From positions 1,056,001-1,120,000 of the forward strand of contig OZ219917.1 of assembly GCA_964291415.2 (NCBI GenBank): DNA of 64,000 nt. The letters run 5' to 3'. This stretch comes from Alphaproteobacteria bacterium. Its GTDB lineage: Bacteria > Pseudomonadota > Alphaproteobacteria > SP197. Below are positions 12,190-34,603 of the stretch, piece after piece. The first letter of the stretch is position 1. Each line of letters starts with the position of its first letter. Below the pieces are notes generated by a model. The model saw only the letters and a list, made by a program, of their open reading frames with translations. It did no database searches and was not told where the DNA came from. The position numbers were made by a program, and so were the translations under genes.

Positions 12190-12241
12190 GGTTCTGAGCC
12201 GCCATCATAGAATAACCGTGACACGGGAACACCCGGCAGGC

Positions 12242-15747: not shown

Positions 15748-15948
15748 CGTCGGTCTCCGCCCTCTTGGTTTTCCGGACGCCATTGTAGAGCCTTGCGGCC
15801 GCGTCCGGCCAGCGTCATCCGGAGTTTCATCGCGCTGTTCCGGTCTCGCTGGTCCTTCGGCTACGATGGCGTTGGCAGGGGCCACCTGGCCTCCATCGCA
15901 ACGGCGCCCCGCGGGCGGTCGGAGCCCGTGGGTTGCGGGGGGCGGAAC

Positions 15949-17145: not shown

Positions 17146-19518
17146 ATGAGGGCGCCAGTCATGGCAACAATCGGGACCGAACCGGGAGGCGTGGGCGTTG
17201 CCGAGACGAACGTGATTCAACCGACGTTCTGGAATGCTCTTCCCCATTTTCTTCCCATCACCATCTTCCCCCTCATCATCGTGGCGGCGTTGCTGGGAGG
17301 CTGGTGGATCCTTGCCCCCTTCGTTTTCTTCGGGCTCGCCGGCCCGCTCGACCTTGCCTTCGGCATGGACGGGCGGAACATGGATCCGGCGAAGACACCC
17401 GAGCGGCGCCTTTTCTGGCACAATCTCCCGGTCTGGCTGTGGGCCGTTCTGTGGCCTGCAACCTTTGTCTTCACGGCCTGGCAGATTCTTGTTTCCGGCC
17501 ACCTGACCGACTTGGAAGGCGCGTTGATGGTGTTCGTCCTGGCCATGGAGGCCCAGGCGGTCTTCATCGTCGGCCACGAGCTCATCCATCGCCGACGGCA
17601 ATGGGAACGCCGCCTCGGCGAGTTCCTGCTCGCTTCGGCTTCCTATCCGCAGTACGCCACGGAACATGTCTACATTCACCATGCCTTTGTCGGAACACCG
17701 CTGGATGTGGGATCGGCTCCAAGGGGTGAAAGCCTGTGGCACTACTTCCCTCGCGAGGTTGCCAACAACCTTCTCGGTTCGTGGCGTGTGGCGCGCGAGC
17801 GTCTGGCGCGCAAGGGACTGCCGGTCTGGCACCGCAGCAACCCGTTCTGGCGCTATGGCCTGGCGACGGCGTTCTGGTATGCCGTCGTCTTCGCGTTGGG
17901 CGGACCATGGGCGATTCCGGTCTACATGGCGCTCTGTCTCGGCGTTGTCTTCTCGATGAAAGTGTCCAACTACATCCAGCACTATGGGTTGCGGCGCGTG
18001 CGTGTGGCCGGAGGGCGTTTCGAGAAGATCCTGCCCCGGCATTCGTGGAGTGTGGACTACAGGTTCAGCAACTGGATGTTCTTCAACATGCAGCGTCATG
18101 CGGATCATCATGCCGTCTGGGGGCGCCGCTATCCCCTCCTGCAGTTCCGTGGCGCCGACGAGTCGCCGCAGCTGCCCGGGAGCTACGGCAAGATGTTCGG
18201 GCTGGCCGTGCGACCGAAACGCTGGTTCGAGACGATGGATCCGCTGGTCGACGAGTGGCGGGCGCGGTTCTATCCGCACATCGACGACTGGAGTGCCTAC
18301 GACAGCCCGGTGTCCGCCACGCGACCGGAGTCCTTTGACGCAATCGTTGAAATCTACGCCGCGGCGCCGCGGCTTGCCGGCTGGATAGAACGTCAGCCGG
18401 ATCTTCTCGACGAGTTGCGCAGCAAGGAGTTCACCGATCTTGATCTCCCGAAGGGATTCGGCCCCGACGCCGGGGCCGAGACAATCGCCCGGCAGGGCCT
18501 GACACGCCTCTACTGGACCCACGAGTTCGGGGTCGCCGACATGAAGGAGGAAATTGCCGAAACACCGGTTCAGGATGCCGGAGACCTCGTGGAACTCGTC
18601 CGCGGCTGGTCGAACCGCAAGGCCTTCCAGGTCGGCATGCACACGTTGCGGGGCAACCTCACGCCGGTGGAGGCAGGCGGGGCACTGGCCAGCATCGCCG
18701 AAGCGGCGATCGCCGCGATTCTCCAGGCTGTCGTGATCGACACGACCGAGCGCACCGGCGCGCCTTTCGATGGCGGCATCGCCGCGCTGGTTCAGGGCGA
18801 CCTTGCCACCCGGGAGGTGGCGCCGGACACCCCGATGGAGGTCATGTTCGTCCGCGACGGGGATTCCAGGGCCAGTCACGAAACGCTCTGTCGGGAGTTC
18901 CGCGACGCTCTTGGGGAACTCGCGCAGGACAGCCTGCTGTTCGCACCCGCAGGGGCCGGCGACGCGGGGAAGGACGTGTGGTCCCTCGAGGAGTTTGTCG
19001 CGTGCCACAGTGAGCCGGGTGAGGACCTTGCGCGCCTCGCCCGTGCGCGGTGCGTGTTCACCGGCGGCGAAACGGACCTTGGCGAGCGAATCGCGGCAGC
19101 AAGACGGGAGCTTCACGTTCCGAAGGGCGCGGGCACCGATGATCCTGCCGACATCGAAGAGGCGGCGCTCATCCTGCAGCTGACCCTCGCCATGGAGGAA
19201 CCCGCGCCTGCGGCCGGTTCGGTCTTCCGGCGTGCCAGGGAAAAGGGACTGCTTGCGGCCGCGGCCGCCGATGATCTGTGTGAAGCCGCCGCTCTCTGGC
19301 GCAACCTGAATGGAATCCAGCGCCTGGTGATTGAGGGGGGTGTTGTGGACGACGCCGTGCCGGAAAGGGTCAGGGCCGTCATCGCGCGCTCCTGCGGCAT
19401 GGCGGGATACGATGCCCTTGAAGCCGCCATGGCCGACGTGACGTCAAGGGCAGGTCATGCCGTCGCGTCGCTCCCTTCTCTGGCCGATGGCGAAGCGCCC
19501 GCGGACGAGTCCGGCTGA
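17146..19518 (+). CDS. AlkB-like membrane diiron monooxygenase/desaturase fused to a degenerate GlnE adenylyltransferase-like domain
   Basis: His boxes HELIH, EHVYIHH, NYIQHYG, MQRHADHH. The C-half follows GlnE motifs (APRLA..I...PDLLD, GDLATREV..., ARAR, DIE...ILQL). Exact start uncertain (17146/17161). Confidence 0.8.
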   Translation: MRAPVMATIGTEPGGVGVAETNVIQPTFWNALPHFLPITIFPLIIVAALLGGWWILAPFVFFGLAGPLDLAFGMDGRNMDPAKTPERRLFWHNLPVWLWAVLWPATFVFTAWQILVSGHLTDLEGALMVFVLAMEAQAVFIVGHELIHRRRQWERRLGEFLLASASYPQYATEHVYIHHAFVGTPLDVGSAPRGESLWHYFPREVANNLLGSWRVARERLARKGLPVWHRSNPFWRYGLATAFWYAVVFALGGPWAIPVYMALCLGVVFSMKVSNYIQHYGLRRVRVAGGRFEKILPRHSWSVDYRFSNWMFFNMQRHADHHAVWGRRYPLLQFRGADESPQLPGSYGKMFGLAVRPKRWFETMDPLVDEWRARFYPHIDDWSAYDSPVSATRPESFDAIVEIYAAAPRLAGWIERQPDLLDELRSKEFTDLDLPKGFGPDAGAETIARQGLTRLYWTHEFGVADMKEEIAETPVQDAGDLVELVRGWSNRKAFQVGMHTLRGNLTPVEAGGALASIAEAAIAAILQAVVIDTTERTGAPFDGGIAALVQGDLATREVAPDTPMEVMFVRDGDSRASHETLCREFRDALGELAQDSLLFAPAGAGDAGKDVWSLEEFVACHSEPGEDLARLARARCVFTGGETDLGERIAAARRELHVPKGAGTDDPADIEEAALILQLTLAMEEPAPAAGSVFRRAREKGLLAAAAADDLCEAAALWRNLNGIQRLVIEGGVVDDAVPERVRAVIARSCGMAGYDALEAAMADVTSRAGHAVASLPSLADGEAPADESG

Positions 19519-19535
19519 CGCATCCCGCATGTCAC

Positions 19536-20864
19536 ATGGCCCGCGATACTGGATATCCCCTGCAGAGCCCCATCGACGCGACAGACAAGCTCGCGGCGCG
19601 GGCCGGCTCTGACAGGGACTTTCGCCAGCGTCTCCTGGCACATCCCAGGGAGACCATCGAATCGGAACTCGGTGTGACCCTCGACGCAGATCAGGAAATC
19701 CATGTGCACGAAGAGTCGTGCACGGCCACCCACGTGGTGCTGCCACCGCTGGACAGGTACTCCAGGGCTGAGCGCGAGGAAGCGAAGACCGGCGCCGGAT
19801 CGTTGGAGTTCCTCCGCAGGACACTCCATGATCCGGCGCCGCCCGCGCGCGCCGCTGCCCCTGACCCGGCGAGACGCCGCGGAACCACGGCCTCTCCCCG
19901 GGCGCTTGCAGGAGAGGGCCGGCAGAGCATCCGCCGGGGTCTCGCGTTTCTCGAGACGACCATGGACGAACGGGGGGCATGGCACTGCATCCGGTTCAAC
20001 ATCGCCGATCCGGCGATACCGCGGCACTTTGAACGGCCGCCCTTCATCTCGGCGCTGTGCGCACTCGCCCTCGAGGCGTGCACTGAAGAGCGGGCCAGTT
20101 CCATCCGCGCGGCGACCAGGAGATATCTCGTCCACTCCATGGAGTACCCGGGGCTGTGGCGCTACTACCGCCACCTTCCCGCGGATCTGGACAGCACGTC
20201 GCTGTGCTCCCTTGCCCTCTCCGGTCATTCGTGGATCGCTCTGGGCAGGAATGTTCCGCACATGCTGGCGAACCGCGACGCCGATGGCCTTTTCCAGACC
20301 TGGCTGCTGTCGGAAGACGAACCCGATGTCGCGTCGGACTTCCGTATCGAGGCCGACCCCGTTGTCAATGCGAATGTCATCGCCTGCCTTGGCTGTCACC
20401 CCGCGACCAGGGAAGCCCGGCACTGGCTGGAGAACAAGGTCGTCGAAGACCGGCTTGAGAACGCGTCCAAGTGGTATCCCGACACGATCACGGCCTACTA
20501 CGCGATCGGCCGCGCCATGGTCCGGGCCGCCCCGGCCCTTGAGGGACTGCGCCCGGTTCTCGTTGAACGCATCCTGGCGCTCTGCGATGACGAGGGGGGA
20601 TGCGGCAATCTCCTGCAGACCTCCCAGGCCGTCACGGCGCTTCACACCATCGGGGGTCTTGAAGCCATTGACGTGACGCGCCAGGTGGAACGCTTCGTCG
20701 ATGCGCAACGGGACGATGGCAGCTGGCCGGAGTATCTGGCGTTTGGCGATCAGTCGCTGCGGTGGGGTGCGATCGGGCAGATCGGTCACGGTTCCGAGTC
20801 CGTGACTTCCGCGTTCTGCATCGAGGCCCTGGGGCACATGATCAACATCCTCGAGGGACGATGA
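19536..20864 (+). CDS. NHLP leader domain fused to a class II terpene cyclase/prenyltransferase-like (alpha/alpha) barrel
   Basis: N-term A.SD.DFRQRLLAHP..TIE.ELG...IHVHEE....H.VLPP; C-term PADLDSTS, DPVVNAN, QRDDGSW (QW repeat). Confidence 0.75.
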   Translation: MARDTGYPLQSPIDATDKLAARAGSDRDFRQRLLAHPRETIESELGVTLDADQEIHVHEESCTATHVVLPPLDRYSRAEREEAKTGAGSLEFLRRTLHDPAPPARAAAPDPARRRGTTASPRALAGEGRQSIRRGLAFLETTMDERGAWHCIRFNIADPAIPRHFERPPFISALCALALEACTEERASSIRAATRRYLVHSMEYPGLWRYYRHLPADLDSTSLCSLALSGHSWIALGRNVPHMLANRDADGLFQTWLLSEDEPDVASDFRIEADPVVNANVIACLGCHPATREARHWLENKVVEDRLENASKWYPDTITAYYAIGRAMVRAAPALEGLRPVLVERILALCDDEGGCGNLLQTSQAVTALHTIGGLEAIDVTRQVERFVDAQRDDGSWPEYLAFGDQSLRWGAIGQIGHGSESVTSAFCIEALGHMINILEGR

Positions 20865-21024
20865 AGGGGAAGGGGCGCGTTTGGGCACCTGACGCCTGCC
20901 GGTTCTTCATGTTGCCGGCCATGCGGGCGAGTTCCTGCCTTGCGCCGGCGGCCCTGCTCGACAGACGGGTTCCGGCGCATGCAGGATCCCTGGAATCGAG
21001 TCGTTTCCGGGGACGTTCGCGGGT

Positions 21025-23346
21025 GTGGACGACAGCACCGTGACCGCAGGCACGACCCCACAGGGGATCCTGACCAGGTGGACTCCCGGGGATCGGGGTT
21101 CCGTCAGGACACCCTTGCTCACTCCGCACCTTGAGTTCCGCGCGATTGGTGACGATCGGGCGCTGCTGGTCTCCGAATCCTTCAACACCCTGCTGCATGG
21201 CAGACTGTGCTGCGATCTGATGCCTCTTCTCGACGGACGGCGCGAGGAGGATGGCATCATCGCGGCTCTCGACGGGATCCACGACGCCCGCGACGTTCGT
21301 TCCACCATCTCCTCGCTTTCCGAAAAGGGCTACGTTGTTTCAGGCGAACATGCGATGGACCGGCAGCGGGCGGCCTGGTGGACGTCGCTTGGTGCATCCC
21401 CACGCTGGGTCGAGGAACAGCTGGCGCTCTCGCGGGTTGTGGTCGAGGGAGATGAGGGAGAACTGGCCGCCTGCCTTGCCGTGTGCGGTGCCGTTTCGGG
21501 AGCCGAGGGGAAGGCCAGTCTCAGGATTGTTGTCTGCAACGATTATCTGGAACCGCGCCTCGAGGAGGTGAACCGGAGACAGCGCGAGGCGGACGAGCCG
21601 TGGATGCTTGCGCGGCCCCATGGCGTGCAGGCGCTCTTCGGTCCCGTCTTCCGGCGCCAGGGGCCCTGCTGGGAATGTCTGGCCAGCCGCATGCGCAGCC
21701 ACCAGGAAGTCCACGCGTTCCTTCGCAATGTGGCCGGAGAGGACGCCGCCTTCAGACCATTTGCCTCGGAAGGCGTGGTGCGGGACGGATTGTTGAGGCT
21801 GATTGCCGCAGAGATCGTCAAGTGGCTGGTCCTTGGCGAGACGGCTGCCGTCCATGATGAAGTGATCGCCGTCGATACCGGCGACTTTGCTGTTTCACGG
21901 CATCGGGTCATGCGCCGGCCGCAGTGCCGCGCCTGTGGAGACGATGGGTTGCACAGATCCGACCGTGCGCCGGTACCGGTGTGCCTGAACGCAAGTCCAA
22001 AGGCTGTTCGGACCAGTGGCGGTGCACGCTGCGTGGCGCCGGAAGCGACCCTGGCGACCTACCGGCACCTGGTCAGTCCGGTCAGTGGTGTCGTGACCTG
22101 GCTGTCGCGTACCACCGATGAAAGCGACCCGTGGCTTCATGTCGACTGGGCCGGAAGCAACCTGGGCATGAGGAGCCGCAGCCTGGCCTCCCTCAGGCGC
22201 AGTCTTCGCAGCAAGAGCGCCGGCAAGGGGAGCACGCCGGTGCAATCCAGGGTCTCTGCCCTTTGCGAGGCGATCGAGCGCCATAGCGGAACCCGGTCAG
22301 GTGACGAGATCCGCATTCGCAGGACATTCAACGGGTTCGACGGGAACGAAAGCGCGATTCACCCCAACGACGTGCAGTTGTTCAGCGACAACCAGCTCGA
22401 CAACGCAAAAGACATCAACGAGAAGGGTCACCCCTACAACATCGTGCCGGCCCGCTTCGACCCTGACGCGGCGGTCGACTGGACTCCGGTGTGGTCGCTG
22501 ACCCAGCGGCGACATCGCTATCTGCCGACGTCGATGCTTTACAGCATGGCGGCCGAGGAGCGTGGTCCGGCGGACCTGATCGCCGATTCCAACGGTTGCG
22601 CTGCCGGCAACACCCTGGAAGAGGCCATCCTGCAAGGCTTCTATGAACTCGTCGAACGCGATGCCTTCGCCATCTGGTGGTACAACCGGCTCAACATGCC
22701 GGCGGTCGATCCCTGCGCCTTCGATGACCCGTACCTTCTCGATGCAACGGCCGTCTACGCCCGCCACGGGAGGGAAGTGTGGATGCTCGACATCACGTCC
22801 GATTTCGGTATCCCAACCTTCGTGGCACTCTCTCGCAGAGTCGACGCCGCCAGCGAGGACATCATCTACGGCGCCGGGACCCATGCCGTTCCGCGACTGG
22901 CCGCCCTGCGGGCGGTGTGCGAACTGAACCAGTGTCTGACGTGGCTGCCGCGGCCCGGAAGCCGCGACGGCCGGCCGACGATCGATGACCCGTTTGTGCT
23001 GTCATGGTGGAGAACCGCGCGCCTTGCCGGATGCCCGTGGCTGGCGCCGGCAACCGAGGGGACGGCTGGCAGGGCGTCGCAGCCTTCCATCGCAGACTCG
23101 GCGGATACGCGCGACGATGTGGAAAGCTGCCGCGCGCTTGTGGAAGCCAGGGGCATGGAGTTCCTGGTGCTTGACCAGACCCGCCCCGACATCGGAATGC
23201 CGGTTGTCCGTGTCATCGTGCCGGGGATGCGCCACTTCTGGGAACGCTTTGCCCCGGGCCGTCTCTACGAGGTGCCTGTCAGCCTGGGATACCGGGCGCA
23301 TCCGCCTGGTGAATCCGACCTCAACACCGCGCCTGTCATTGCCTGA
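21025..23346 (+). CDS. srpC: Fused TOMM cyclodehydratase (RRE + E1/ocin-ThiF + YcaO)
   Basis: GP.F....PCWECL, RPQCRACG, SAGKG, SALCEAIER, SNGCAAGNTLEEA, ELVERDA, RVIVPG. The gene symbol is assigned by analogy to the srp clusters. Confidence 0.9.
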   Translation: MDDSTVTAGTTPQGILTRWTPGDRGSVRTPLLTPHLEFRAIGDDRALLVSESFNTLLHGRLCCDLMPLLDGRREEDGIIAALDGIHDARDVRSTISSLSEKGYVVSGEHAMDRQRAAWWTSLGASPRWVEEQLALSRVVVEGDEGELAACLAVCGAVSGAEGKASLRIVVCNDYLEPRLEEVNRRQREADEPWMLARPHGVQALFGPVFRRQGPCWECLASRMRSHQEVHAFLRNVAGEDAAFRPFASEGVVRDGLLRLIAAEIVKWLVLGETAAVHDEVIAVDTGDFAVSRHRVMRRPQCRACGDDGLHRSDRAPVPVCLNASPKAVRTSGGARCVAPEATLATYRHLVSPVSGVVTWLSRTTDESDPWLHVDWAGSNLGMRSRSLASLRRSLRSKSAGKGSTPVQSRVSALCEAIERHSGTRSGDEIRIRRTFNGFDGNESAIHPNDVQLFSDNQLDNAKDINEKGHPYNIVPARFDPDAAVDWTPVWSLTQRRHRYLPTSMLYSMAAEERGPADLIADSNGCAAGNTLEEAILQGFYELVERDAFAIWWYNRLNMPAVDPCAFDDPYLLDATAVYARHGREVWMLDITSDFGIPTFVALSRRVDAASEDIIYGAGTHAVPRLAALRAVCELNQCLTWLPRPGSRDGRPTIDDPFVLSWWRTARLAGCPWLAPATEGTAGRASQPSIADSADTRDDVESCRALVEARGMEFLVLDQTRPDIGMPVVRVIVPGMRHFWERFAPGRLYEVPVSLGYRAHPPGESDLNTAPVIA

Positions 23347-23355
23347 GGGAGTGTC

Positions 23356-24534
23356 ATGGACACAGACAAGGCCATCGCACTGACCCAGGACCTTCTGGCC
23401 CAGGAGGGCGGGACCATGGGCGACCTGCTCGGTCACTTCCGGAACAGGGTGTCGCCGACCCTCATCGATGACGCTGAATGGGATCGTGTCCTGGCATGCG
23501 CCCGAACCCTTCCCATCACGATGGGCGCGCTTCCCTTCGGTTTTGAACTGCCGCTGCATGTGCCGGAGCCACAGGCGGATCTAGGCGTATCCATGGCGAG
23601 TGGAACCAGATCGGCGGAGTTCTTCCGGGAGCGCGCCCGGGTTCACAGGACCGATGATACCCTCGGCACACTCATGCGACTCTTCGATCACATGGAAGGC
23701 GGGGTCTCACCCTTGCGCGACATTGTCGGCCGCAAGGTGATGCTGGAGTACGACATCGGCTCGGCTGAAGGCGGTACGCCTTCGCGTCCGGCCTTGTTCC
23801 TGAGGCCCGGTGAACGACCGATCGTCGGCGCGGGCGGCCAGGTCGATGATGTCCTGCTGGTGGGCGATGCCCTTGTTTCGAGTCACGGCTGGACGATGGG
23901 TGCAGGCCAGCGCAAGGCACTCTCGCAGGCCTACCTGGCGCAGCCGGAGGATACGCGCATGGACTCGTTCGGGATGTTCCCGTCCCGCTCACGCGCCGTC
24001 CGGCTGGCCATCATGGGGTTCGCAAACCGCCGGCAGATCGAAACCTACCTGGACAAGGCGGGGTGGCCAGGCGAAGCCGCGGCCGTCGATGCGGTCATGG
24101 CACGTTTCATGGAACGCGTGAACATCGTCAGGACCGGGGTGAACATTGACGTGACGGAAGAGGGGCTGGGCCCCGCCCTCGGTCTGACGCCGATCGTCCG
24201 GCAGAGGTACACCAAGGATTCACGGTACTGGCTCGATGGCCTGACCGACTGGGCGCCGTTCCTGGACGCCCTGAGTCACGAGGACATTGTCGTGCCCGGC
24301 AAGCTGGAAGCGCTGGCAGGCTGGGTCTCGAAACCGGAACACCTGTTCGCACGGTCCGGACGCTACGTGCTGCTGCGAGGCATCCACCATGTCAAGCTGG
24401 TCATTTCGGCGAACCGGCTCTGCAAGGCCAAGGCCTATGTCTTCATGGTGCTTGTCGGGCGCCGTGTCACTCTGACGCCGAACACAACGGCCCCCGATCC
24501 GGATCGAACCGGGGCAATCCTCGCAGGTTCTTGA
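23356..24534 (+). CDS. Conserved RiPP-associated protein, probable ABBA-like aromatic prenyltransferase
   Basis: FGFE.PL...ADLG, LEYD, SR...VRL, W..FLD.L, RGIHHVKL, KAYV; translationally close to YcaO (9-nt gap). The function is inferred. Confidence 0.45.
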   Translation: MDTDKAIALTQDLLAQEGGTMGDLLGHFRNRVSPTLIDDAEWDRVLACARTLPITMGALPFGFELPLHVPEPQADLGVSMASGTRSAEFFRERARVHRTDDTLGTLMRLFDHMEGGVSPLRDIVGRKVMLEYDIGSAEGGTPSRPALFLRPGERPIVGAGGQVDDVLLVGDALVSSHGWTMGAGQRKALSQAYLAQPEDTRMDSFGMFPSRSRAVRLAIMGFANRRQIETYLDKAGWPGEAAAVDAVMARFMERVNIVRTGVNIDVTEEGLGPALGLTPIVRQRYTKDSRYWLDGLTDWAPFLDALSHEDIVVPGKLEALAGWVSKPEHLFARSGRYVLLRGIHHVKLVISANRLCKAKAYVFMVLVGRRVTLTPNTTAPDPDRTGAILAGS

Positions 24535-24570
24535 GGGCGCGCCGCCGTCACGGCGCGCCGACAACGGCAG

Positions 24571-24822
24571 TTACCAGCAGCAGCACAGACCGGCCGAGAC
24601 CGCTTCGAGCTGCTCTTCGGTAATGTTCGGGTCGGGCGGCAGTGCAACATGCACCGTCTGCATGTCACTCTGATGAACCACGACGTTCATCGAGTCTGGA
24701 ATCGTGATTCCAAGTTCGTTGCAGATGGTCCCTTTCGGATCTGCAAGAAGCTCTTGCCTGAAACCGGCGTCGACAGCGGATTTGTCGACAATCTGCTGCA
24801 ACATCTCATTGCCGTTTCTCAT
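24571..24822 (-). CDS. srpE: Proteusin (NHLP) precursor peptide, 83 aa, core LCCCW after the AG cleavage motif
   Basis: MRNGNEMLQQIVDKSAVDAGFRQELLADPK...HVALPP...EEQLEAVSAG|LCCCW; GGAGAG RBS upstream of the ATG at 24822. Confidence 0.93.
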   Translation of the reverse strand: MRNGNEMLQQIVDKSAVDAGFRQELLADPKGTICNELGITIPDSMNVVVHQSDMQTVHVALPPDPNITEEQLEAVSAGLCCCW

Positions 24823-24884
24823 GGCCACTCTCCACTGATCTACCTTAATTGTGCCGGCGAGTATGCCGGAATCCTCATTGAAAA

Positions 24885-24912
24885 AGTGTACAGGCCGGAT
24901 TTGCCGGGTCAA
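24885..24912 (-). promoter_or_regulatory. Putative dedicated sigma70 promoter of the precursor gene
   Basis: Minus strand TTGACC-N16-TACACT; the -35 overlaps the MMPL stop codon. Confidence 0.5.
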
Positions 24913-27215
24913 GCATTTCCGTTCGTGTTGTTGCCGCGGTCAACCATCCGCAACAGTGCGGGCAGGAGCGTCAGGTCGGCAAGGAGTGCAAAGGCGATGA
25001 TCAACGCCGTCAGGATCCCCACCTGTGCGGTGGGAATGAAGGGAGAGAAGGCGAAGATCAAGAAGCCGGCCACCAGGACGAGAGTCGTCGTGAAGACGGC
25101 GCGGCCGGCAGTGTCGAAGGCGTAGCGCACGGACTCCCCGCTGTCCTTGCCATGGTCGAGGCGCGCTTTGCGGTACTTGCTGAGAAAGTGCACCGTATCG
25201 TCGACAACGATACCGACCGTCATGGCCACGACGACCGACAGGGAGAGTCCCACCTGCCCCACCGTCAATCCCCAGACGCCGAAACCCAGCACGGCCGGGA
25301 GCAGGTTGGGAATGATGCTGATCAGGCCCAGTCGCAAGGATCTGAGGGCGAAGAGGAGTATGGCGGAAATCGCGAGCAGCACGACCATGGTTCCGACCAG
25401 CATGGCCCGGATATTGCGTTGACCGATCCAGGCGAACAGCACCGCCGGTCCGGTGCTGTTGACGCCGGCCACGTTGGGTGCGTTGTCGCTCAGCCAGGCC
25501 CTGGCCCGTGCGTTCAGTTCAAGCAGTTCCTGAGAGCCGAGAGACTGGGCCTGGACCGATACGCGTGTTGCCGACTTTGACCAGTCGATCTGGTTGTTCA
25601 CGTCCAGGCCCTGAGGCAGGGAGAGCTCGTAGAGCAGCAGGTACTGTGCGGCCAGCTCCCGGCTTTCGGGGAGGCGGTAGGCATCAGGGTCGTCACCATG
25701 CATGGTCTGGTTGAGACGCCGGAAGGTATCGGTGATGACGGCGACGTGGCGCACTCGCGGCTGGTCGCGGTACCAGTCGGCGAACGCGGCGACATCGGTG
25801 AGGAACGCCGGGTCCGTGACGCCGCCTTCGGCGGGAGCTTCCAGCGAATACTCGAGCAGGGTGTTGCCGCTCAGCCGCTCGTCCATGAAGTCCGTGTCCT
25901 GGCGGAACTCGACACTCTCGTCGAAGAAGTGGACCAGGACATCGTTGAGCTCGTTTCGCGGGATCGCGAGGATCATCGCAATGACGAGCACCAGCCATCC
26001 AAGGATGATCAGCTTTCCGTGCTTGATCACAACGTCGGCCAGGTGGTGCATTGTCGGCGCCTGCGGCCGCCTGTTCCTTGGCGCGCGAACGGGGAGCAGC
26101 GACAGCATGGCCGGAAGAAAGGTCACGGACAGGATGAAGGACGTGACGATTCCGATGGCGACAAAGCAGCCGAGTTCACGATAGGGGGGCACCTCGGAAA
26201 AGTTCATGCCCAGGAATCCAAGGGCGGTCGTGAGGCTCGCAAGGAAGATCGGGTGCAGGTTGAGCCTGATGGCTTCGACGATGGCATCGTGTTTCGAATC
26301 GCCCGCGCGCAGACGTTGCTGCAGGGCAACCAGCAGGTGAACGCAGTTGGCCACGACAATCATGAGGATGATGGTTGGCGCCGGGGCGATGGGCGGAGAA
26401 AACTCCAGGCCGATCCAGGCCCCCAGGCCCATGGAGGCCAGTATGGAAAAGATGATGACAAGGCCGGTGGTCACCACGCCCGGCCAGCCCCGGACGAGAA
26501 TGCCGAGAATCAAGGCCATGAGAAGGAGGCTGGCCGGCAGGAAGATCATCTGGCTTTCAACCGAAGCCTCGAGAAAGGTCTGGTTGACCATCACCGTACC
26601 GACGATGCGAAGATCAACGCCGGGGAAACGCGTCTCTGCCTCGGCGGCTATCGTTCGGGCGAATTGCGCCACTTCGGCCACGGCTTCCAGCTGGTCGCCT
26701 TCAGGCATTTCCAGAGTGACATTGACAACGCTGACATCGCCATTGCGGGCCAGCATGCTGCCGGCGATGCGGGGGTCGAGGAGGGCAATGTCACGGATGC
26801 GTGACCGTGCTTCAACCCGCGTCAGTTCCTGCGGATCGACCAGGTCCTGAACCACCAGGTCATCGCCGTCGGCCGTCGTGTACTGGAAGTTGGCCAGGGA
26901 GTCGACGCGCCGTGACCAGGGTGTCTGCCAGGCAGCCTCGGTCAGCCAGACGGCGGCAGAGAGCGCCTCGGTGGAGGTCGCATCGCCGTCGTCGGGAACA
27001 ATCAGGAAGACGACATTCTCGTTCTTTCCATAGGTGTCTTCCAGGTCTTCCAGCGCCAGAAGCTGCGGATTGTCGTCATCAAAGAAAATGCGGTAGTCGG
27101 CGGAGAATTCCAGCAGGAGCATGCCGACGGAGGCAAGAGCGACCAGGATGGGCGCAACGAGGATGACCAGCCAGCGGTTGGCGAGCACCCGTTCCGCATA
27201 ACGTTCAGCCGTCAT
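24909..27215 (-). CDS. MMPL/RND family transporter
   Basis: Two repeats of TM-periplasmic-5TM; VHL, SLTTALGF, GIVVDDTVHF motifs; ATG at 27215 with GGAGAG. Confidence 0.9.
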   Translation of the reverse strand: MTAERYAERVLANRWLVILVAPILVALASVGMLLLEFSADYRIFFDDDNPQLLALEDLEDTYGKNENVVFLIVPDDGDATSTEALSAAVWLTEAAWQTPWSRRVDSLANFQYTTADGDDLVVQDLVDPQELTRVEARSRIRDIALLDPRIAGSMLARNGDVSVVNVTLEMPEGDQLEAVAEVAQFARTIAAEAETRFPGVDLRIVGTVMVNQTFLEASVESQMIFLPASLLLMALILGILVRGWPGVVTTGLVIIFSILASMGLGAWIGLEFSPPIAPAPTIILMIVVANCVHLLVALQQRLRAGDSKHDAIVEAIRLNLHPIFLASLTTALGFLGMNFSEVPPYRELGCFVAIGIVTSFILSVTFLPAMLSLLPVRAPRNRRPQAPTMHHLADVVIKHGKLIILGWLVLVIAMILAIPRNELNDVLVHFFDESVEFRQDTDFMDERLSGNTLLEYSLEAPAEGGVTDPAFLTDVAAFADWYRDQPRVRHVAVITDTFRRLNQTMHGDDPDAYRLPESRELAAQYLLLYELSLPQGLDVNNQIDWSKSATRVSVQAQSLGSQELLELNARARAWLSDNAPNVAGVNSTGPAVLFAWIGQRNIRAMLVGTMVVLLAISAILLFALRSLRLGLISIIPNLLPAVLGFGVWGLTVGQVGLSLSVVVAMTVGIVVDDTVHFLSKYRKARLDHGKDSGESVRYAFDTAGRAVFTTTLVLVAGFLIFAFSPFIPTAQVGILTALIIAFALLADLTLLPALLRMVDRGNNTNGNA

Positions 27216-27385
27216 GTGCCATCTCTCCACGGCTGTCCCTCACCACCGTGTCGGACACGACCACACTCGACGCTCGCGGACGGATCGTCGAAAGCAGGGA
27301 ATCATGGGGAAGGGCGCTCATTGCGGCAGGTCGCAAAACAAGGTTGGGCCGGCCCGAATGCCATGTCAACGGTCCGCTTCACGGG

Positions 27386-30306
27386 TCAGGCGATCTGGCG
27401 TCTGACCAGATTCCGGAAGACGCCATCGATGTCCATGAGTTCGCTGAAGGAGCCGCTCTCCACAATCTTCCCGGCTTTCAGCACATGGATGCAGTCAGCC
27501 TTCTCCAGCGTCGACAACCGGTGCGCGATGACAAGTCTCGTTGTGGTCAGAAGGGCGAGGTTCTGCATGACCTCGGCCTGGCTGTCGTTGTCGAGCCAGT
27601 TGGTTGCCTCGTCGAGGAGCATGATTCGCCGGTCGCCGATGAGGGAGCGGGCAATGGTGACACGCTGGCTCTCTCCGCCGGAGAGAACCGAACCGCTGCC
27701 CCCGACCATCGTCATCATTCCCATGGGCATGGCCTTGATTCCGCTTTCTATTCCGGCCGCCCGGGCAGCCTCCCAGACCTCTGCAGGCCCCACTCCCTCG
27801 TGGTGCGCGACAATGTTGTCCCAGATGTCCTGGGGGTGCAGCCGCACCGCCTGGGGTACGGTGCCTATCTTGCGGCGCACCTGCTTGAGATTGAGGTGCT
27901 TGAGGTCCCGTCCGTCGTAGTAGACGGCCCCGGACGTCGGCTGGTCGATACCAAGCGCCAACTGGAAGAGCGTGCTCTTTCCGGCACCGGATTCACCGGC
28001 AATCGCGACGAATTCGCCGGGACGGACATGGATTGTGACATCATCGAGAACCAGGGGCCCTTCGGGTTCGTATCGGAATGACACATGGTCGAACAGGATC
28101 TCGCCGCCGAGACGCTCGACCAGCGCACCCTCTTCCCCGGCTTCGGGAACCGCGGCAAGCAAGGGGCGCATCTGCCTGAATGCCGGCACCAGGGCAGCCA
28201 CGGCGCCGACCGATTCACCAAGACGGGCCACAGCCGATTGAGACGCGATGAACACCATGAAGACGACGAGGAAATCGCCGACCGGAAGCGTCCGCGTTTC
28301 GAATGCCGCCACCGCAAACAGCAGCACCGCTCCGGCGAAGAACGGAAGAGCGGCGCCAAAGGCACGGACGTGCTCCTCGATACGGTGGACTTCGAGCTCC
28401 GCGCGCTTTTGCTGGCGATAGTCCCCGGCCCATATGGCGAAAGCCGATCCTTCCGCACTTTCCACACGCAGCTTGGCGATGCCGCCGATGATCTGGAACA
28501 GCCGTCCGGTCACGCGTCTGGCCGCGCTGATCATTCGTCCCTGGGGTACGAGCTGGCGCAGCCCCAGCACGACGGTCACGAGAAGCGAGAGGAGGCTGAA
28601 AGCGAGAACGACAAGACCCAGAGAGGTATCGTAGAAGAAGGTGATCCCGAGAACCGGAACGAGAAACAGGATTGACAGCAGGCTGTCGGACACGACTCCC
28701 TGCAAGCCGTCACGAACATTCTGGAATGTCATGCCCGACATCGCCAGGTCACCGGTTGGCTGGCGACGCAGGACAGCGGGCGGAAGGCGCATGAGGCGGT
28801 CCCAGAAGGCTGCTTCGACCCGCGATGCCGAACGTCCTTCCAGGCGCATCAGAATCGTGCTTTGCAACAGCTGAAGCAAAGCGCCCAGAAGACCGAATCC
28901 CGCCAGTGTCACAGCCACGACATAGAGGATGCCGACGGTTCCGCCGGCCGTGGCCTGGTGAGCCACAAAACCAAGCGCCAGCACCGGCAACAGCTTGATC
29001 AGGCCGCCGAAGAACCCGGTTGCCAAGAGCCGGGCAAGATCGGCGCCCGACCCCTTGAAGGCGATGTCCAGGAGATCGGCCGGCTTGACGGACCTTGACG
29101 GCAATGGCCGATAGAACATCCAGGCTTCAGCCTTCAGCCGCCGGCGCGCTCGCCTGCGATCCGGACGCTGCGTCCGCTCGCCGGGTCGACCTCACGATAG
29201 TGCCCGAACAATCCCGGCAGCAGGACGACAGGCCTGTCGTCGTCGGACCGGAATGCCAGAATTGCGCTGCTGTCTCCACGCCACCATGCATTGTCCGGGG
29301 AGATCCTGAGGCGGCGGGCACGGACGCCGGACGCATCGAGAATGTCCGTGAGAGCGGGCGCGGAACCGGAGGCGTGGCGTGGCGGGATCCTGAAATCGAT
29401 TCCCTGGTGGCGGCCGATGATCTTCAGTGCGTCCGCAAGTGCCGTGTCGCCGATGTCCTCGCCGATCGGCATGTCGTACATGTTGAACAGCTTCTGGCGC
29501 GCGTCGCGCTCGGCCGTGCGCCGGCTGGCGATCCGCGCGCGTTCCAGGTTTGCCTCATCGACCACCGCCAGTTGCCGGTTGAGCCGCTCAAGCGCGAGAG
29601 CGGCAGCATGAAACGTGGCCAGTGCCGGCAACAGGGTGCCCTGTTCGGCCAGTGACCGGCTCGATGTGCCGGACACGGTGACCCCTGCATGGAAGGTGAG
29701 CCAGCTTGTCCGGGTCAGCGGCACCAGGGTTTCGCCGCGACCGCCTTCCTCCGGTTCGATCATGTCCATGTAGAGACCGGCGCCGTGCGAGGGAATGGAT
29801 ACCCACACAACGCCCTGGCGTACGGAAAGAATGCAGGACTCCAGGGACCGGGTCACACCGGGTTCGGCGAGGGCAGTGGCGTATGGAATGCTGCCGACGA
29901 ATCGCGACAGGGTTTCGGTGATGGCCTGCAACCACGTGTCCGTCTGTTGCGCCAGTTCAGCCGGATCGACTTCGTGGAGCAGGGACACCGGCAGACGCAT
30001 CAGAAGGGTGTCCGGCAGTCCCTTCGCCAGCAGGCCAAGTGTCGTCTCCTTGCCGTCGCCTTCAGAATCCGGCGCGACACCGGGCAACAGTTCACCTGCC
30101 TCGCGGCGAAGCAGGTGTTGTGGTGACGCCTGCTCCACTCCGTCCCTGAATTCCACCAGGAAGAGATCGACGCTGCCCCTGGCAATGAACCACACGTGAT
30201 CGGGTTCATCGAGCGGCACCGGCAGGTTACCGGCGCAGGGACAGGGCTTGCCGGCGCGTTGCGCGAGTTCGGCAATCGATGTGTATGGAGGCGACTGATC
30301 GCGCAT
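27386..30306 (-). pseudogene. NHLP bacteriocin export ABC transporter permease/ATPase, split by a -1 frameshift near 29140 (pieces 29134..30306 and 27386..29119)
   Basis: Upstream piece has the cNMP-like/inactive C39 region ending ERAGG*. The -1 frame continues RLKAEAWMFYRPLP into the TMD and ABC domain (GESGAGKS, LSGGE, LLDEAT). Could be a sequencing error. Confidence 0.8.
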
Positions 30307-32516
30307 CAGCCTGACCTGGTCAGTCGCGAGTAGACGCCATCGGCATTGGCGATCAGTTCGTCGTGGGTGCCCCGCTCCACTTCACGGCCCCCGTCGAGCA
30401 CGATGATCTCGTCGCAGTCACGCACCGCGCTCAACCGGTGCGCCACGATCAGGCACGTGACGCCACGCCGACGCAAGGCATCGTCGACATACTCTTCCGT
30501 TGCCGCGTCAAGGGCGCTGGTTGCCTCGTCGAGCACGAGCACGGTCGGATGACCCACCAGGGCACGGGCAATCTCCAACCGCTGGCGCTGGCCGCCGCTG
30601 AAGTTCATGCCGCCCTCCTCGACAAGGGTGGCGTACCCGAGAGGGCGTTTCAGAATGTCCTCATGGATGCAGGCGTCCCTTGTCGCATCGACGATGACCT
30701 CATCCGGAACGGCCGGGTTCCACAGGGTGATGTTGTCGCGCAAGGTTGCGGAAAAGAGCACGGTTTCCTGGTTCACCATGGAAATGGACCGCCGCAGCAC
30801 CTCCTCGGGAATCTCCTGGCGAGGGTGGCCGTCAAACAGGATCTCACCCGACCAGGGTTGATAGAGTCCCGCAACCAGATGCGCCAGGGTCGACTTGCCG
30901 GAACCGCTGGCTCCCACCAGAGCGACCCGCTGCCCGGGATTCAGGATGAGGTTGAAGTCAGAAATCAGGGGTGGCCGGCTCCTGTTGAAACCGAAGGTGA
31001 CGTTTCTCAGTTCGACCTTTCCTGCAAGCTGGAGGCGCCTGTTGAACGTCGTGATGGAAACCCGGTCCGGTTCCCGGCGGCTGAACACGGGATCCTCCGT
31101 GGCCCTGGCAACGTCTTCCAGCCTCTGCAAGTCGGTTTCGAGAGCCTGCCGCCTGTCGGCGAACTCCAGGAATCGCCCGACAGGCGCGAGAAACATCTCC
31201 GCCAGGATGTAGAAGGCGACCAGTGTCCCCAGGGTCATGGAGCCGGTCATGACCATGGTGCCGCCGATCAACAGGATTGTCGCGCTGCGCAGAGCGGCGA
31301 TCAGGTCCGGCAGGGCGCCATTGAGCGCACCCAGTTCGAAGTGGGCCTGGCGCGCACGAAGTTCGCGGGCCTGATGACCGCCCCAGCGTGCAAAGAACCG
31401 GTCGTCGGACCCGGTCATGCGCAGGTTGTCGGCATGGTTGAGCATCTGCATGCCGATGCCGAGCAGAAGTCCCTGTTCGCGCCGCATGGCCTGGCTGCGC
31501 ACGGCGCGCCGGATATTGAAGACGTGGGCGAGTCCCGCATGGATGAGAGCCAGCGACAGCACGACCAGTGCCAGCACGGGATCGTAGGCGAGCAACACCG
31601 CGAACAGCACGGCGCTCGTGGCCATGTCGATGATGAGCACCAGAAACTGCTCTGTCAGGGTTTTCGCCACCCGGTCGAAGGATGACACCCGGTCCGTCAG
31701 GTCGCCGGCAAGCCGGTGTTCGAAGAACTCGACGGGCAGGCGCAGCAGCTTCGTCAGTCCACGGCTGTAGCCGGTTACCGATATGCGGATGGCGAGCCGC
31801 TTGAGAAACCTGTGCTTGAGCAGGGTCAGCAGGTAGACGAGCACACCGCCGCCGATGAGCGCGGCCACAAGGCCAATCCAGGTTCCCTGGTTCAACAGGA
31901 CATGGTCGACGAAGGCGCCAAGGACTGCCGGCACAACCAGCGACAGCAGTGTCAGCATGAGCGCGCAGGCCGCCACTCCGGCAAGCGAACTCCACAGTCC
32001 GCTGACGACGGCGCCGAGTTGTGCGTAAAGGCTCTTGCGTGTGCCGCCGGGAACAAACTCATCGCCACGCGCAAACCGCAGGGCGACACCGCTGTAGCCG
32101 GCGGCAAACTCTTCGGCGGTTACCCGGCGGCGCCCCGTAGCCGGATCATTGAGGTAGTAGCCGTGTTCGTCGAAACCTTCGAGAACAACGAAGTGGCTGA
32201 ACTGCCAGAACAGAATCAGGGGTAGCTGCAGTTTCCTGAGCTGTTCGGCCCTGAGGCTCAGTCCGCTGCATTCAAGACCGTACTGTCGCGAGGCTCTCAG
32301 AATGCTGGCGGCGCTGCTGCCGTCCCGGCTCACCTCGCACTTTTCCCTGAGTTCGGTCAGCGGAACCCATCGCCCGAAGTGGCCGAGGACGCTGCCGAGG
32401 CAGGCAGCACCGCACTCGGACGCGTGCATCTGCAAGACGACCGGAGTGGCGACTCTTCGTCGCCGGACCTCGGATGCCGTCCGGCTTCCAGCCTCCCGGG
32501 AGGCGCGTACCGGCAT
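30306..32516 (-). CDS. NHLP bacteriocin ABC transporter, C39 peptidase/permease/ATPase
   Basis: QMHASECGAACL, HFVVLEG, LNDPA, GASGSGKS, FSGGQRQR, LDEATSALD. Confidence 0.93.
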   Translation of the reverse strand: MPVRASREAGSRTASEVRRRRVATPVVLQMHASECGAACLGSVLGHFGRWVPLTELREKCEVSRDGSSAASILRASRQYGLECSGLSLRAEQLRKLQLPLILFWQFSHFVVLEGFDEHGYYLNDPATGRRRVTAEEFAAGYSGVALRFARGDEFVPGGTRKSLYAQLGAVVSGLWSSLAGVAACALMLTLLSLVVPAVLGAFVDHVLLNQGTWIGLVAALIGGGVLVYLLTLLKHRFLKRLAIRISVTGYSRGLTKLLRLPVEFFEHRLAGDLTDRVSSFDRVAKTLTEQFLVLIIDMATSAVLFAVLLAYDPVLALVVLSLALIHAGLAHVFNIRRAVRSQAMRREQGLLLGIGMQMLNHADNLRMTGSDDRFFARWGGHQARELRARQAHFELGALNGALPDLIAALRSATILLIGGTMVMTGSMTLGTLVAFYILAEMFLAPVGRFLEFADRRQALETDLQRLEDVARATEDPVFSRREPDRVSITTFNRRLQLAGKVELRNVTFGFNRSRPPLISDFNLILNPGQRVALVGASGSGKSTLAHLVAGLYQPWSGEILFDGHPRQEIPEEVLRRSISMVNQETVLFSATLRDNITLWNPAVPDEVIVDATRDACIHEDILKRPLGYATLVEEGGMNFSGGQRQRLEIARALVGHPTVLVLDEATSALDAATEEYVDDALRRRGVTCLIVAHRLSAVRDCDEIIVLDGGREVERGTHDELIANADGVYSRLTRSG

Positions 32517-33158: not shown

Positions 33159-34430
33159 TTAGACGATGCCGAGACCCTGGGACACCTGGGCGTAACTGGT
33201 AAGGGGGACAGCGCACATCCGGTGCCAGTCCTCCCTGGCGATGACCGGCTGGTTCAGCAGGCCGATCATGTCGTCGAACTTGCTGAGTGCGGAGCATCCG
33301 ACAACCTCCGGGGCGGCGGCCTTGCGGTGTTGAGGCCAGGCATGACCGCGGGCGTATCGCCAGAAAGGCGTGTCATGCCGTGAGCCGCAGGAATAGTGCC
33401 AGCCGACAAAGAGTCCGTATCGCAGGACGGTGCTGACAAGGAAGCGATTGACCACCGGAGCATCGCGCTCGAGATACTCCGGTGCGCGACCGAGACGGAT
33501 GTGGAGCACCATGCCGATCTGCAATTGTGCGGAGACGATCGCCGTTGCCTCGAGGGGTTCCATGAAGGCCGCCGCGTTGCCGATGCGGGCGACAGCCCCG
33601 TCATAGATCCGGCGATGAACAAAGTTCGGGAAGGGGATGACGGCGCGCGGTTCGAACTCCGTGACGCCGTCGGCTTCCAGGAGAACGTCAAAGTCCGCAT
33701 TGACCTCGTCGACGCTGGAGAGGTTGCGATTGAAGATGTATCCGTAGGACGTGTGGACCGTCAGCGGAATCACGAATACCCAGCCGTGCGGACGGGCCAC
33801 CGCACGGGTGTAGGTCGGTTGCCGGACCGTTTCCCCGGGCCTTTCGCGAATGGTGGCCGGTGCGCGACGGATGATCGCCGTATTGGTCGGAATGAAGGGG
33901 ATTTCGATGTGCTGGTCTGCGTCCAGTTCTCCTGGAAATCCGCGGGCATCGAAGACGAGGTCGTAGCGTTCCGGTCCCATGCCCTCGAAGTTCACCTGCG
34001 CACCGCCGTCGACCCTGGTGATCCCGAGCACCCTGGCGTCGACATGACGCGCCTTTGTGCCTTCCTGCAGCAGGTCCGCCATCACATCGGCAGACAAGTG
34101 ATAGGCATAGGACACCTGTTGCGGGGTGAAGTAGTGGGTGAAGTCTCGTTGAAGCCGGCCCCATCCCTCGAAGGCGACGCCGTACTTGCGGGTTCCATTC
34201 AGGCGCTGCTGGACGGTTTCGTGCGGCAGGTTCGTCAGTTTCCGCAACTCGTCGACCAGGCTGGGCCAGCTTCCTTCGCCCACGCCGCTGATCGGGATGC
34301 CGGGGTCATGGATGTGATGCAGTTCGTGGTCGATGCCCTGCAGCTGGTTCGTCACACTGGCGGCTGCCAGGGATCCAGCGGTTCCCCGTCCAATCACCGC
34401 GATCCTGTTGAGGGTCGTGCTGCCAATCAT
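33159..34430 (-). CDS. srpI: Flavin-dependent (tryptophan-halogenase family) peptide halogenase
   Basis: IGRGTAG, GVGEGS, TRKYGV (catalytic Lys position), GWVFVIP, IGNAAAFMEPLEAT; located at the edge of a cluster whose core ends in Trp. Alternative start at 34469. The gene symbol is assigned by analogy to the srp clusters. Confidence 0.85.
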   Translation of the reverse strand: MIGSTTLNRIAVIGRGTAGSLAAASVTNQLQGIDHELHHIHDPGIPISGVGEGSWPSLVDELRKLTNLPHETVQQRLNGTRKYGVAFEGWGRLQRDFTHYFTPQQVSYAYHLSADVMADLLQEGTKARHVDARVLGITRVDGGAQVNFEGMGPERYDLVFDARGFPGELDADQHIEIPFIPTNTAIIRRAPATIRERPGETVRQPTYTRAVARPHGWVFVIPLTVHTSYGYIFNRNLSSVDEVNADFDVLLEADGVTEFEPRAVIPFPNFVHRRIYDGAVARIGNAAAFMEPLEATAIVSAQLQIGMVLHIRLGRAPEYLERDAPVVNRFLVSTVLRYGLFVGWHYSCGSRHDTPFWRYARGHAWPQHRKAAAPEVVGCSALSKFDDMIGLLNQPVIAREDWHRMCAVPLTSYAQVSQGLGIV

Positions 34431-34603
34431 CCTGATAGAGGCATCCACAGATTCCGGTTGCCACTCCATTAGCCGGGATGCACCGGTGAGACAACACGCT
34501 ACCATGGAACCGCGTCCTCGCCGGGCCCTCTTCGGCGAGGGTTCGGCACGTGACGATGCGCTCGATTGTGGCCAAGGTATCTTGAGGAACTGGGCATGAA
34601 CCG

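Follow-up and report, generated by a model that had tools for sequence, protein, structure and literature searches.

A class II terpene cyclase fused to a leader-like domain is a conserved member of the srp proteusin cluster

Results

A leader-like domain and a terpene cyclase in one gene

Within a 64,000-nucleotide stretch of an alphaproteobacterial genome (assembly GCA_964291415.2, contig OZ219917.1, positions 1,056,001 to 1,120,000; hereafter the window, G+C content 65%), a single gene joins a domain resembling the leader of the precursor of a peptide that is made by ribosomes and then post-translationally modified (RiPP) to a class II terpene cyclase (Table 1). The presence of both parts in one gene is confirmed, and the gene is a conserved core member of the cluster that surrounds it. 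By its sequence, this locus belongs to the srp proteusin clusters already known from sponge symbionts: its precursor, SrpE, carries a leader peptide of the nitrile hydratase-like type (NHLP) followed by LCCCW, the core that defines sponge-derived RiPP proteusin (srp) clusters (10.1101/2023.06.09.544420, PMC10858898). The C-terminus of SrpE reads ...ITEEQLEAVSAG/LCCCW, an end also given as ...HVALPPDPNITEEQLEAVSAG/LCCCW. The fusion gene is probably the one published as srpB.

Clusters of the srp type have been reported from many sponge-symbiont phyla with a highly transcribed precursor, while their final product and ecological role were described as elusive (10.1101/2023.06.09.544420). SrpC, a YcaO enzyme, is reported to form three thiazolines, and the C-terminal Trp to be brominated by SrpI; in the text available from these reports, functions are assigned to SrpC, SrpE, and SrpI only (10.1101/2023.06.09.544420, PMC10858898, PMC10286304), and a 2025 survey, likewise available in part, lists the remaining genes of LCCC clusters as “genes of unknown function” (PMC11832590). 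Across the literature text searched, which left the 2021 discovery paper and its supplement outside, no cyclase, prenyltransferase, or leader-fusion assignment appeared for srp clusters. We give about an even chance to the reading that the fusion protein is the terpene cyclase of an unrecognized isoprenoid branch of the srp pathway, with the leader copy serving as its docking domain.

The fusion gene is intact, widespread, and apparently of single origin

The reading frame of the fusion gene is open throughout and translates into 442 amino acids (aa). A search of a large protein collection, in which 8000 candidates were scored, returned 1077 matches at E ≤ 1e-3; the best 120 of these are 427–503 aa long, share 63–91% identity with the query over 96–100% of its length, and bear source names that point to metagenome-assembled genomes from several phyla. 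In a genome survey restricted to one genome per species, 298 genomes encoded a relative. The best 80 of these 298, to which all counts of loci or sequences out of 80 refer, each contain the full-length fusion, and the taxa given in their record titles include Alpha-, Gamma-, and Deltaproteobacteria, Binatia, Bryobacterales, Vicinamibacteria, Gemmatimonadota, and Nitrospirales. Because the best 120 of the 1077 matches are full-length and the best 80 of the 298 genomes carry the whole fusion, a frameshift or an assembly artefact is ruled out. The source genome holds one copy. A metatranscriptome run gave short contigs, mostly 90–95% alike, over parts of 17146–24900, with the fusion gene at low depth; these contigs come from relatives in the RNA library, and their presence does not amount to proof of transcription.

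Among representatives clustered at 50% identity there were 1189 matches at E ≤ 1e-3. Three of the 150 listed (P0122, P0123, and P0126) possess the leader copy over most of their length; the remainder consist largely of stand-alone barrels with ~300–340 aa. A Pfam scan of 27 representatives found the barrel fused in some of them to a P450, a Trp_DMAT-like region, DUF2332, a sulfotransferase, or an acyltransferase, and Pfam PF28380 is attached to some homologs of the fusion; the cluster names looked up for ten relatives were uninformative. In trees computed from the barrel only (FastTree with 125 rows; IQ-TREE in quick mode with 104 rows, in which 12 of the 33 fusion rows were joined to the full set of 92 stand-alone rows), the fusions form one clade with a support of 100, nested among stand-alone barrels with a DxDD motif and set off by a long stem branch (0.79). 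Judging from these trees, the fusion arose once.

The barrel is a class II terpene cyclase in family and fold

Residues 125–442 are predicted to form one (alpha/alpha)6 barrel, which is of the beta-domain type, and AlphaFold2 (AF2) modelled residues 121–442 well. A family profile searched against the PDB matched drimenol synthase (4.3e-30), squalene-hopene cyclase (1.7e-27), AstC (2.6e-21), and MstE (2.3e-5), and all 33 PDB sequences at E ≤ 0.01 are terpene cyclases or cyclase-like proteins, including small myxobacterial cyclases and copalyl diphosphate synthases. The single sequence scored weakly on Pfam SQHop_cyclase_C (20.5 bits vs a cut-off of 26.1). At the level of structure, Foldseek placed the barrel model on drimenol synthase with an E-value of 7.7e-12, and VIA-align superposed the two at Z 30.8, with a root-mean-square deviation (rmsd) of 2.3 Å over 282 residues, followed by MstE (Z 28.2) and squalene-hopene cyclase (Z 26.3); ranks 1–33 are all class II cyclases, and unrelated (alpha/alpha)6 hydrolases appear near Z 18. 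This confirms, at the level of family and fold, the class II terpene-cyclase assignment that the original prediction had made from the letters of the sequence.

A LanC or protein prenyltransferase reading of the barrel was set aside as unlikely: LanC is absent from the 33 PDB profile matches and from the listed Foldseek and VIA-align rows—an absence that does not exclude it, although the class II cyclase matches are far stronger—and the beta subunit of GGTase3 appears only at Foldseek rank 48, with E ~1e-3.

Both motifs that had been pointed out, DLDS at the DxDD position and a QRDDGSW repeat, lie within the barrel, the first as part of DLDST at residues 217–221 and the second at residues 391–397. 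The stretch DLDST aligns with DDLDTTS of drimenol synthase. Its central Asp, D219, is found in 125 of 125 aligned rows as well as in all 80 fusion genes. In the alignment it corresponds to the residue given as N in the chain of the entries that bear the title AsDMS D333N. The complete DxDD is absent from the fusions: position 220 is Ser in 33 of 33 fusion rows and 80 of 80 sequences, while 77 of the 92 stand-alone relatives have Asp, and drimenol synthase has Thr. In the QW motif, Q391, D394, G395, S396, and W397 are kept in 80 of 80 sequences, with G395 invariant across the 125 rows.

The N-terminal domain as a copy of the precursor leader

On sequence evidence, the N-terminus of the fusion is a homolog of the SrpE leader. 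The NHLP leader model TIGR03793 matches residues 16–71 with an E-value of 1.5e-11 and a score of 43.9 bits, which is below the curated cut-off of 50.9 bits; at E ≤ 1e-3 it matches all 34 aligned homologs. BLASTP aligned the fusion with SrpE at 23 identical positions out of 69 (33%; E 1e-12), and a profile–profile comparison (hhalign) laid residues 9–78 of the precursor on residues 18–87 of the fusion with a probability of 98.3% and an E-value of 1.9e-14. The resemblance of the first ~85 aa to the true precursor leader, noticed earlier from the sequence, is thus borne out, and every one of the strings quoted for it and for the barrel (DFRQRLLAHP, HVVLPP, YSRAEREEAKTGA, DLDS, and QRDDGSW) is present.

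AF2 modelled the fusion with a mean predicted local distance difference test (pLDDT) score of 87.9 and a predicted template modelling (pTM) score of 0.81. The 125 rows of the input alignment were drawn from the 34 aligned homologs (31 rows) and from 104 suitably long representatives (94 rows); excluded were three rows because of their long N-terminal extensions and ten because they were fragments or matched only in part. The N-terminal domain is predicted to consist of helices at residues 12–25, 27–35, and 37–45 and a hairpin of strands 56–59 and 65–68, followed by short helices at 77–84 and 90–96. This is the arrangement (alpha1–alpha3, beta1, beta2) reported for NHLP leaders (PMC10858898).

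We compared mean pairwise identity over 34 rows and the ratio of nonsynonymous to synonymous substitution (dN/dS) over 2944 pairs of 81 coding sequences, keeping in mind that dS is ~0.85–0.93, near saturation, and that the pairs are not independent. The values are 0.69 and 0.22 for the NHLP core (residues 12–72), 0.76 and 0.17 for the segment after it (residues 73–103), 0.44 and 0.60 for the linker (residues 104–124), and 0.78 (residues 125–442) and 0.16 (residues 125–440) for the barrel. By this measure, the N-terminal 90 residues, a diverged copy of the leader, are maintained by purifying selection. The Pro/Ala linker that had been proposed is indeed there, as the sole variable part of the protein. 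By contrast, the description of the stretch after the leader as a “degenerate” cleavage motif did not hold, for this segment is conserved like the enzyme itself. It stands where the true leader has its L(X)4L motif and cleavage site, and follows the consensus (F/L/Y)SxAER..A..G(A/G)xSLEFL..T..DPAPP, in which R80, A83, G86, S89, and L93 are kept in 80 of 80 fusion sequences.

A constant partner with a predicted prenyltransferase fold

Gene presence was counted in the 50 loci with full 10-kb flanks. SrpD was found in all 50, the YcaO gene in 49, the precursor in 46, the AlkB-like gene and the exporter gene ABC2 in 44 each, the halogenase in 38, and the transporter of the resistance–nodulation–division (RND) type in 23, with a gene order that varies by lineage. 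The fusion and SrpD are more constant than the brominase, given that they co-occur in 50 of 50 loci vs 38 of 50 for the halogenase. Over all 80 related loci, a true precursor was found in 60, and its end is LCCCW in 58 of these; the other two cores read LSCCW and LCCSW. The halogenase, which led to the discovery of srp clusters, is missing within 10 kb in 12 of the 50 fully flanked loci.

SrpD is an unannotated protein whose start probably lies ~20 codons downstream of the one in Table 1, because its homologs are 372 aa long. Neither Pfam, NCBIfam, nor the PDB yielded a sequence match. Its AF2 model (pLDDT 84.3, pTM 0.84) is composed of repeated strand–strand–helix–helix units, and Foldseek matched it to 88 chains at E ≤ 1e-3, of which those listed are aromatic or indole prenyltransferases (including IptA, 5- and 6-DMATS enzymes, DMATS1, PriB, CymD, EpzP, AmbP3, and CloQ). 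VIA-align gave Z 17.8 with the indole prenyltransferase MpnD (307 residues, rmsd 4.4 Å) and 132 chains at Z ≥ 8. Comparing SrpD with the Trp_DMAT-like part of one relative of the fusion, P0203, revealed no link by BLASTP or hhalign.

Although a common fold is no proof of a common function, an indole prenyltransferase fold and a class II cyclase, next to a core that ends in Trp, make a coherent pair. Since SrpD has this predicted fold and always occurs with the fusion, the likeliest job of the barrel would be to cyclize an isoprenoid on the peptide. We envisage that SrpD attaches a polyprenyl chain to the core peptide, with the C-terminal Trp of LCCCW as the most likely site. D219 of the barrel would then donate a proton to the distal double bond, or to an epoxide formed by the AlkB-like SrpA, and the chain would cyclize. 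As context for such a branch, the cluster encodes an AlkB-like oxygenase and an HpnN-like RND transporter, and relatives of the barrel are fused to the Trp_DMAT-like region or to P450s. With SrpD always accompanying the cyclase, the srp product is probably a peptide–isoprenoid hybrid. If SrpD and the fusion are a prenyltransferase/cyclase pair, the product would be lipidated, which would set other targets in sponge metabolomes, and the AlkB-like oxygenase and HpnN-like transporter of the cluster would be explained.

Predicted pairing of the leader copy with the precursor

In the mechanism we propose, the leader copy would be neither a substrate nor an export tag but a domesticated docking domain: the structured cores of the copy and of the SrpE leader would pair through their beta-hairpins and helix 1 and so hold the cyclase on its substrate. 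With no L(X)4L on the copy, that of the precursor would stay free for the YcaO enzyme, the brominase, and the C39 peptidase.

A three-chain prediction of SrpD (residues 21–372), SrpE, and the fusion as the scored partner gave a complex score of 0.64 (runs of 0.53, 0.67, and 0.64), compared with at most 0.33 in three controls, namely 0.00 for each of two unrelated partners and 0.33 when SrpD was replaced. The score mark of the tool is reached by 116 of 157 solved complexes and by 2 of 215 mismatched pairs, a calibration from which our custom alignments and three chains differ. At least 82% of contacts are common to the runs, and the partner pLDDT is at least 80. Confident contacts connect SrpE residues 7–28 and 43–65 with fusion residues 16–37 and 52–77 and with barrel residues 199–236, and the tightest of them run strand to strand, for example between SrpE 46–49 and fusion 65–68 and between SrpE 56–59 and fusion 56–60. 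The model thus depicts a pseudo-symmetric NHLP–NHLP pairing, in which the precursor's L(X)4L and core are unplaced and possibly free. As a model, it supports binding between SrpE and the fusion, and the proposal that the leader copy pairs with the precursor, NHLP core to NHLP core, has thereby gained some computational support.

Several further observations, besides the departure from the tool's calibration, weigh against this mechanism. With the fusion kept and SrpD swapped, the control still scored 0.33 with 112 confident contacts, which leaves some of the score without an explanation, and the confident contacts listed for the three-chain prediction include none of SrpD. The model may lay two homologous domains side by side without biological reason, and the AF2 monomer is less sure at residues 61–100 (pLDDT 57–67). 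A related NHLP precursor, MprE7-TH1, was reported to be monomeric by small-angle X-ray scattering up to 523 uM (PMC10858898), so NHLP cores do not pair as a rule. A mirror-tree comparison of the NHLP copy with SrpC, SrpD, and SrpA (56 loci, 1540 pairs) gave partial correlations of −0.05 to 0.15 and hence no signal. Regarding the chemistry, the prenyltransferase role of SrpD is inferred from its predicted fold, Ser220 in place of the last Asp could mean that the acid strength is altered or lost, and the cluster contains no polyprenyl diphosphate synthase, the two of this genome residing on other contigs. Finally, the accounts of srp peptides available to us describe thiazoline formation and bromination only.

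Taken in full—a leader that was duplicated and became a docking domain, a cyclase that finds its substrate by NHLP–NHLP pairing, and srp peptides that are brominated, thiazoline-bearing peptide–terpenoid hybrids whose lipid was overlooked—the scheme is tentative, and we consider it possible rather than probable. Leader-to-leader recognition is not described for any RiPP enzyme in the literature surveyed, as far as its available text extends. A leader copy that lacks the motif and sits on a natural enzyme would represent a testable new mode of substrate recruitment and possibly a portable handle for the engineering of NHLP pathways.

Alternative roles of the two domains

A different role for the copy would be intramolecular or non-specific: it could pack against the barrel of the same chain and serve there as an activator in cis, as a lid, or as an aid to solubility, in the manner of engineered leader–enzyme fusions, and the substrate would be a leaderless peptide or a free isoprenoid. 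We hold this to be rather unlikely. The whole-chain pTM of 0.81 speaks for it, as do residues 101–110, which probably lie on the barrel because their pLDDT is 89; moreover, barrel residues 199–236 share the interface with the NHLP copy in the complex model, and stand-alone relatives work without such a domain. Yet the linker is variable and under relaxed selection, the interdomain region has a low pLDDT, and the complex prediction, in which SrpE engages the copy, passed its controls.

The original prediction had also suggested that the leader could tether the cyclase to the maturases, by binding the RiPP recognition element (RRE) of the YcaO enzyme or the brominase in the manner of a substrate leader. 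The copy is, by sequence, a true homolog of the leader that these enzymes bind, the YcaO enzyme of a related system also touches helix 1 of the NHLP core (PMC12455567), and the N-terminal half of SrpC gave the highest partial distance correlation, though a very weak one (0.15). However, L(X)4L is reported to be needed by MprC, the YcaO enzyme of this related system, and by SrpI, and resembles the target of the C39 protease (PMC12455567, PMC10858898, PMC12537861). The precursor's instance of this motif, ITEEQL, aligns with (F/L/Y)SxAER of the fusion, where the first position is F, L, or Y at residue 75 in 75 of 80 sequences and the second Leu is replaced by Arg80 in 80 of 80. Because it thus lacks L(X)4L, the copy is unlikely to be bound by the RRE of the YcaO enzyme, by the brominase, or by the C39 exporter. 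In addition, helix 1 of the copy is unlike that of SrpE at most aligned positions, and a copy bound in the leader site would compete with the substrate. The maturase-tag proposal has lost ground accordingly in our estimate, and we regard it as unlikely.

Even less likely, in our view, is that the barrel is no longer a cyclase and that its DxDS version only binds an isoprenoid or modified peptide, as a chaperone, immunity protein, or helper of prenyl transfer. The Ser220 substitution that separates the fusion rows from most stand-alone relatives would fit such a loss, as would the long stem branch of the fusion clade; but neither the central Asp nor the QW motif varies, a barrel dN/dS of 0.16 indicates strong purifying selection, and an active drimenol synthase has Thr at the position of Ser220.

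We consider it highly improbable that the copy is an export or cleavage tag, by which the C39-type ATP-binding cassette (ABC) transporter encoded nearby would cut after G86 and secrete the cyclase: G86 is invariant, aligns with the Gly preceding the precursor cleavage site, and is followed by Ala (67 of 80) or Gly (8 of 80), but positions −7 and −4, where C39 cleavage needs hydrophobic residues, are invariant Arg80 and Ala83 (80 of 80 each) instead of the precursor's Leu and Val/Ile, and what comes after G86 is no short core peptide but a SLEFL...DPAPP stretch conserved as part of the protein (with SLEFL as a helix), the linker, and a folded 320-residue barrel, an odd cargo, so that the proposed routing through the exporter finds little favour.

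Relation to known systems

The closest structural counterparts of the fusion are two small class II terpene cyclases, the drimenol synthase AsDMS (9mhs, 9m7d) and MstE (6sbb), which share its barrel (Z 30.8 and 28.2) with a QW motif present; in AsDMS the acid motif also has the same register, DDLDTT vs ADLDST in the fusion. They differ from the fusion in that a HAD phosphatase forms the N-terminal part of AsDMS, whose substrate is farnesyl diphosphate, whereas MstE is a stand-alone enzyme that uses a prenylated benzoate; both are without a leader-like domain and without a peptide substrate. Covalent joining of a leader to a RiPP tailoring enzyme has precedents in the engineered fusions of LctM and LynD, laboratory constructs that are activated in cis, accept leaderless cores, and keep the recognition motif. 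In the natural srp fusion, by contrast, the motif is gone, and the predicted binding partner is the leader of its substrate.

The chemistry that we propose resembles that of NctPC, which combines an ABBA (alpha–beta–beta–alpha) prenyltransferase with an MstE-like cyclase, and of ChrPC: there, the Trp of a RiPP is reported to be prenylated with C10–C20 donors and the chain is then cyclized (PMC13290415, citing Hubrich et al. 2024). Like these systems, srp clusters pair an MstE-like barrel (Z 28.2) with an ABBA-fold protein in a RiPP cluster, in 50 of 50 loci. In NctPC and ChrPC the cyclase is fused to the prenyltransferase, whereas the srp genes are separate and vary in order, and the cyclase is fused to a leader copy; the srp precursor, moreover, is an NHLP proteusin with thiazolines and bromine—a comparison by published description, not by sequence.

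The mpp cluster of Moorena producens is reported to encode an SrpI-like halogenase, the leader-dependent ABBA prenyltransferase MppC, a terpene synthase, and an oxygenase (PMC11791876, PMC12715784). It shares with srp this set of halogenase, ABBA prenyltransferase, terpene enzyme, and oxygenase, and a Trp-containing core behind a long structured leader (PMC11791876, PMC12715784). Unlike in srp, the mpp leader is of the Nif11 and not the NHLP type and the core is a lanthipeptide; in the available text of these reports, no leader-like domain is mentioned on the mpp terpene synthase (PMC11791876, PMC12715784). With the published srp clusters, as far as these are described, our locus shares the LCCCW core, an SrpC-like YcaO enzyme, an SrpI-like brominase, and NHLP exporters.

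Neighboring genes and further NHLP-like sequences

The srp genes of the window and the parts of the fusion gene are compiled in Table 1.

Table 1 Positions in the window of the fusion gene, its parts, and the surrounding srp genes (ORF, open reading frame)
Feature	Position	Strand	Description and basis
Fusion gene	19536..20864	+	442 aa plus stop; core gene of the srp cluster
NHLP-like structured core (residues 12–72)	19569..19751	+	TIGR03793 match, hhalign against the SrpE profile, AF2 secondary structure
Conserved post-leader segment (residues 73–103)	19752..19844	+	
Variable Pro/Ala-rich linker (residues 104–124)	19845..19907	+	
Monodomain class II terpene cyclase barrel (residues 125–442)	19908..20861	+	Profile against PDB, Foldseek, VIA-align
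DLDST (residues 217–221)	20184..20198	+	DxDD-type general-acid motif, Ser for last Asp; alignment
QRDDGSW (residues 391–397)	20706..20726	+	Sole QW motif
SrpA	17146..19518	+	790 aa; AlkB-type membrane di-iron monooxygenase plus GlnE-like nucleotidyltransferase region
SrpC-like YcaO cyclodehydratase	21025..23346	+	With winged-helix and E1-like leader-binding parts
SrpD	23356..24534	+	Unannotated, 392 aa; predicted ABBA indole prenyltransferase fold
SrpE, true precursor	24571..24819	-	82 aa; NHLP leader, ITEEQL, SAG/LCCCW
MMPL/HpnN-like RND transporter	24909..27230	-	HpnN among best NCBIfam matches, 1.3e-39
NHLP-type export genes	27386..32516	-	ABC2 27386-29119; 390-aa ORF 29134-30306; C39-peptidase ABC1 30306-32516
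SrpI-like flavin-dependent tryptophan halogenase	33159..34658	-	Pfam Trp_halogenase 1.5e-44

SrpA is an unusual AlkB/GlnE-like fusion in its own right: residues 28–369 match alkane 1-monooxygenase (8f6t, E 2.7e-43), residues ~464–660 are GlnE-like, and it occurs in 44 of the 50 fully flanked srp loci. The presence of an MMPL/RND transporter with a match to the hopanoid-associated HpnN inside a RiPP cluster fits a lipidated product. In the export genes, the match to TIGR03797 is split, with model positions 2–102 on the last 100 residues of the 390-aa ORF and positions 111–686 on the ABC2 ORF; since related loci contain the same two ORFs, the exporter probably exists here in a genuine two-gene or extended version, and the split is probably not a frameshift.

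A second NHLP precursor (TIGR03793 61.2 bits, over the cut-off) is encoded at 741295–741516 of the same contig, ~315 kb before the window start. Beyond this contig, an NHLP scan that covered 401 genomes from the phylum had matches in 47 of them, mostly in open frames of ~200–310 aa, and a protein atlas queried with fusion residues 1–110 returned small NHLP-like clusters only (scores 0.76–0.81), which we treat as a lead; neither the scan nor the atlas shows whether other NHLP–enzyme fusions exist. The one scan match that was opened, on another contig of the source genome (1350466–1350858), is a true nitrile hydratase alpha subunit with the metal site VCTLCSCYPW, accompanied by a beta-subunit-like ORF; the NHLP-like matches at this nitrile hydratase locus are the ancestral enzyme and not a RiPP. 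Back in the window, an enolase-superfamily ORF (14767–17055), whose N-terminal ~390 residues are without a match, comes after two paralogous S-Me-THD-like (thiohydantoin desulfurase-like) genes, which are located at 12170–13300 and 13492–14550 (+), just upstream of the srp cluster.

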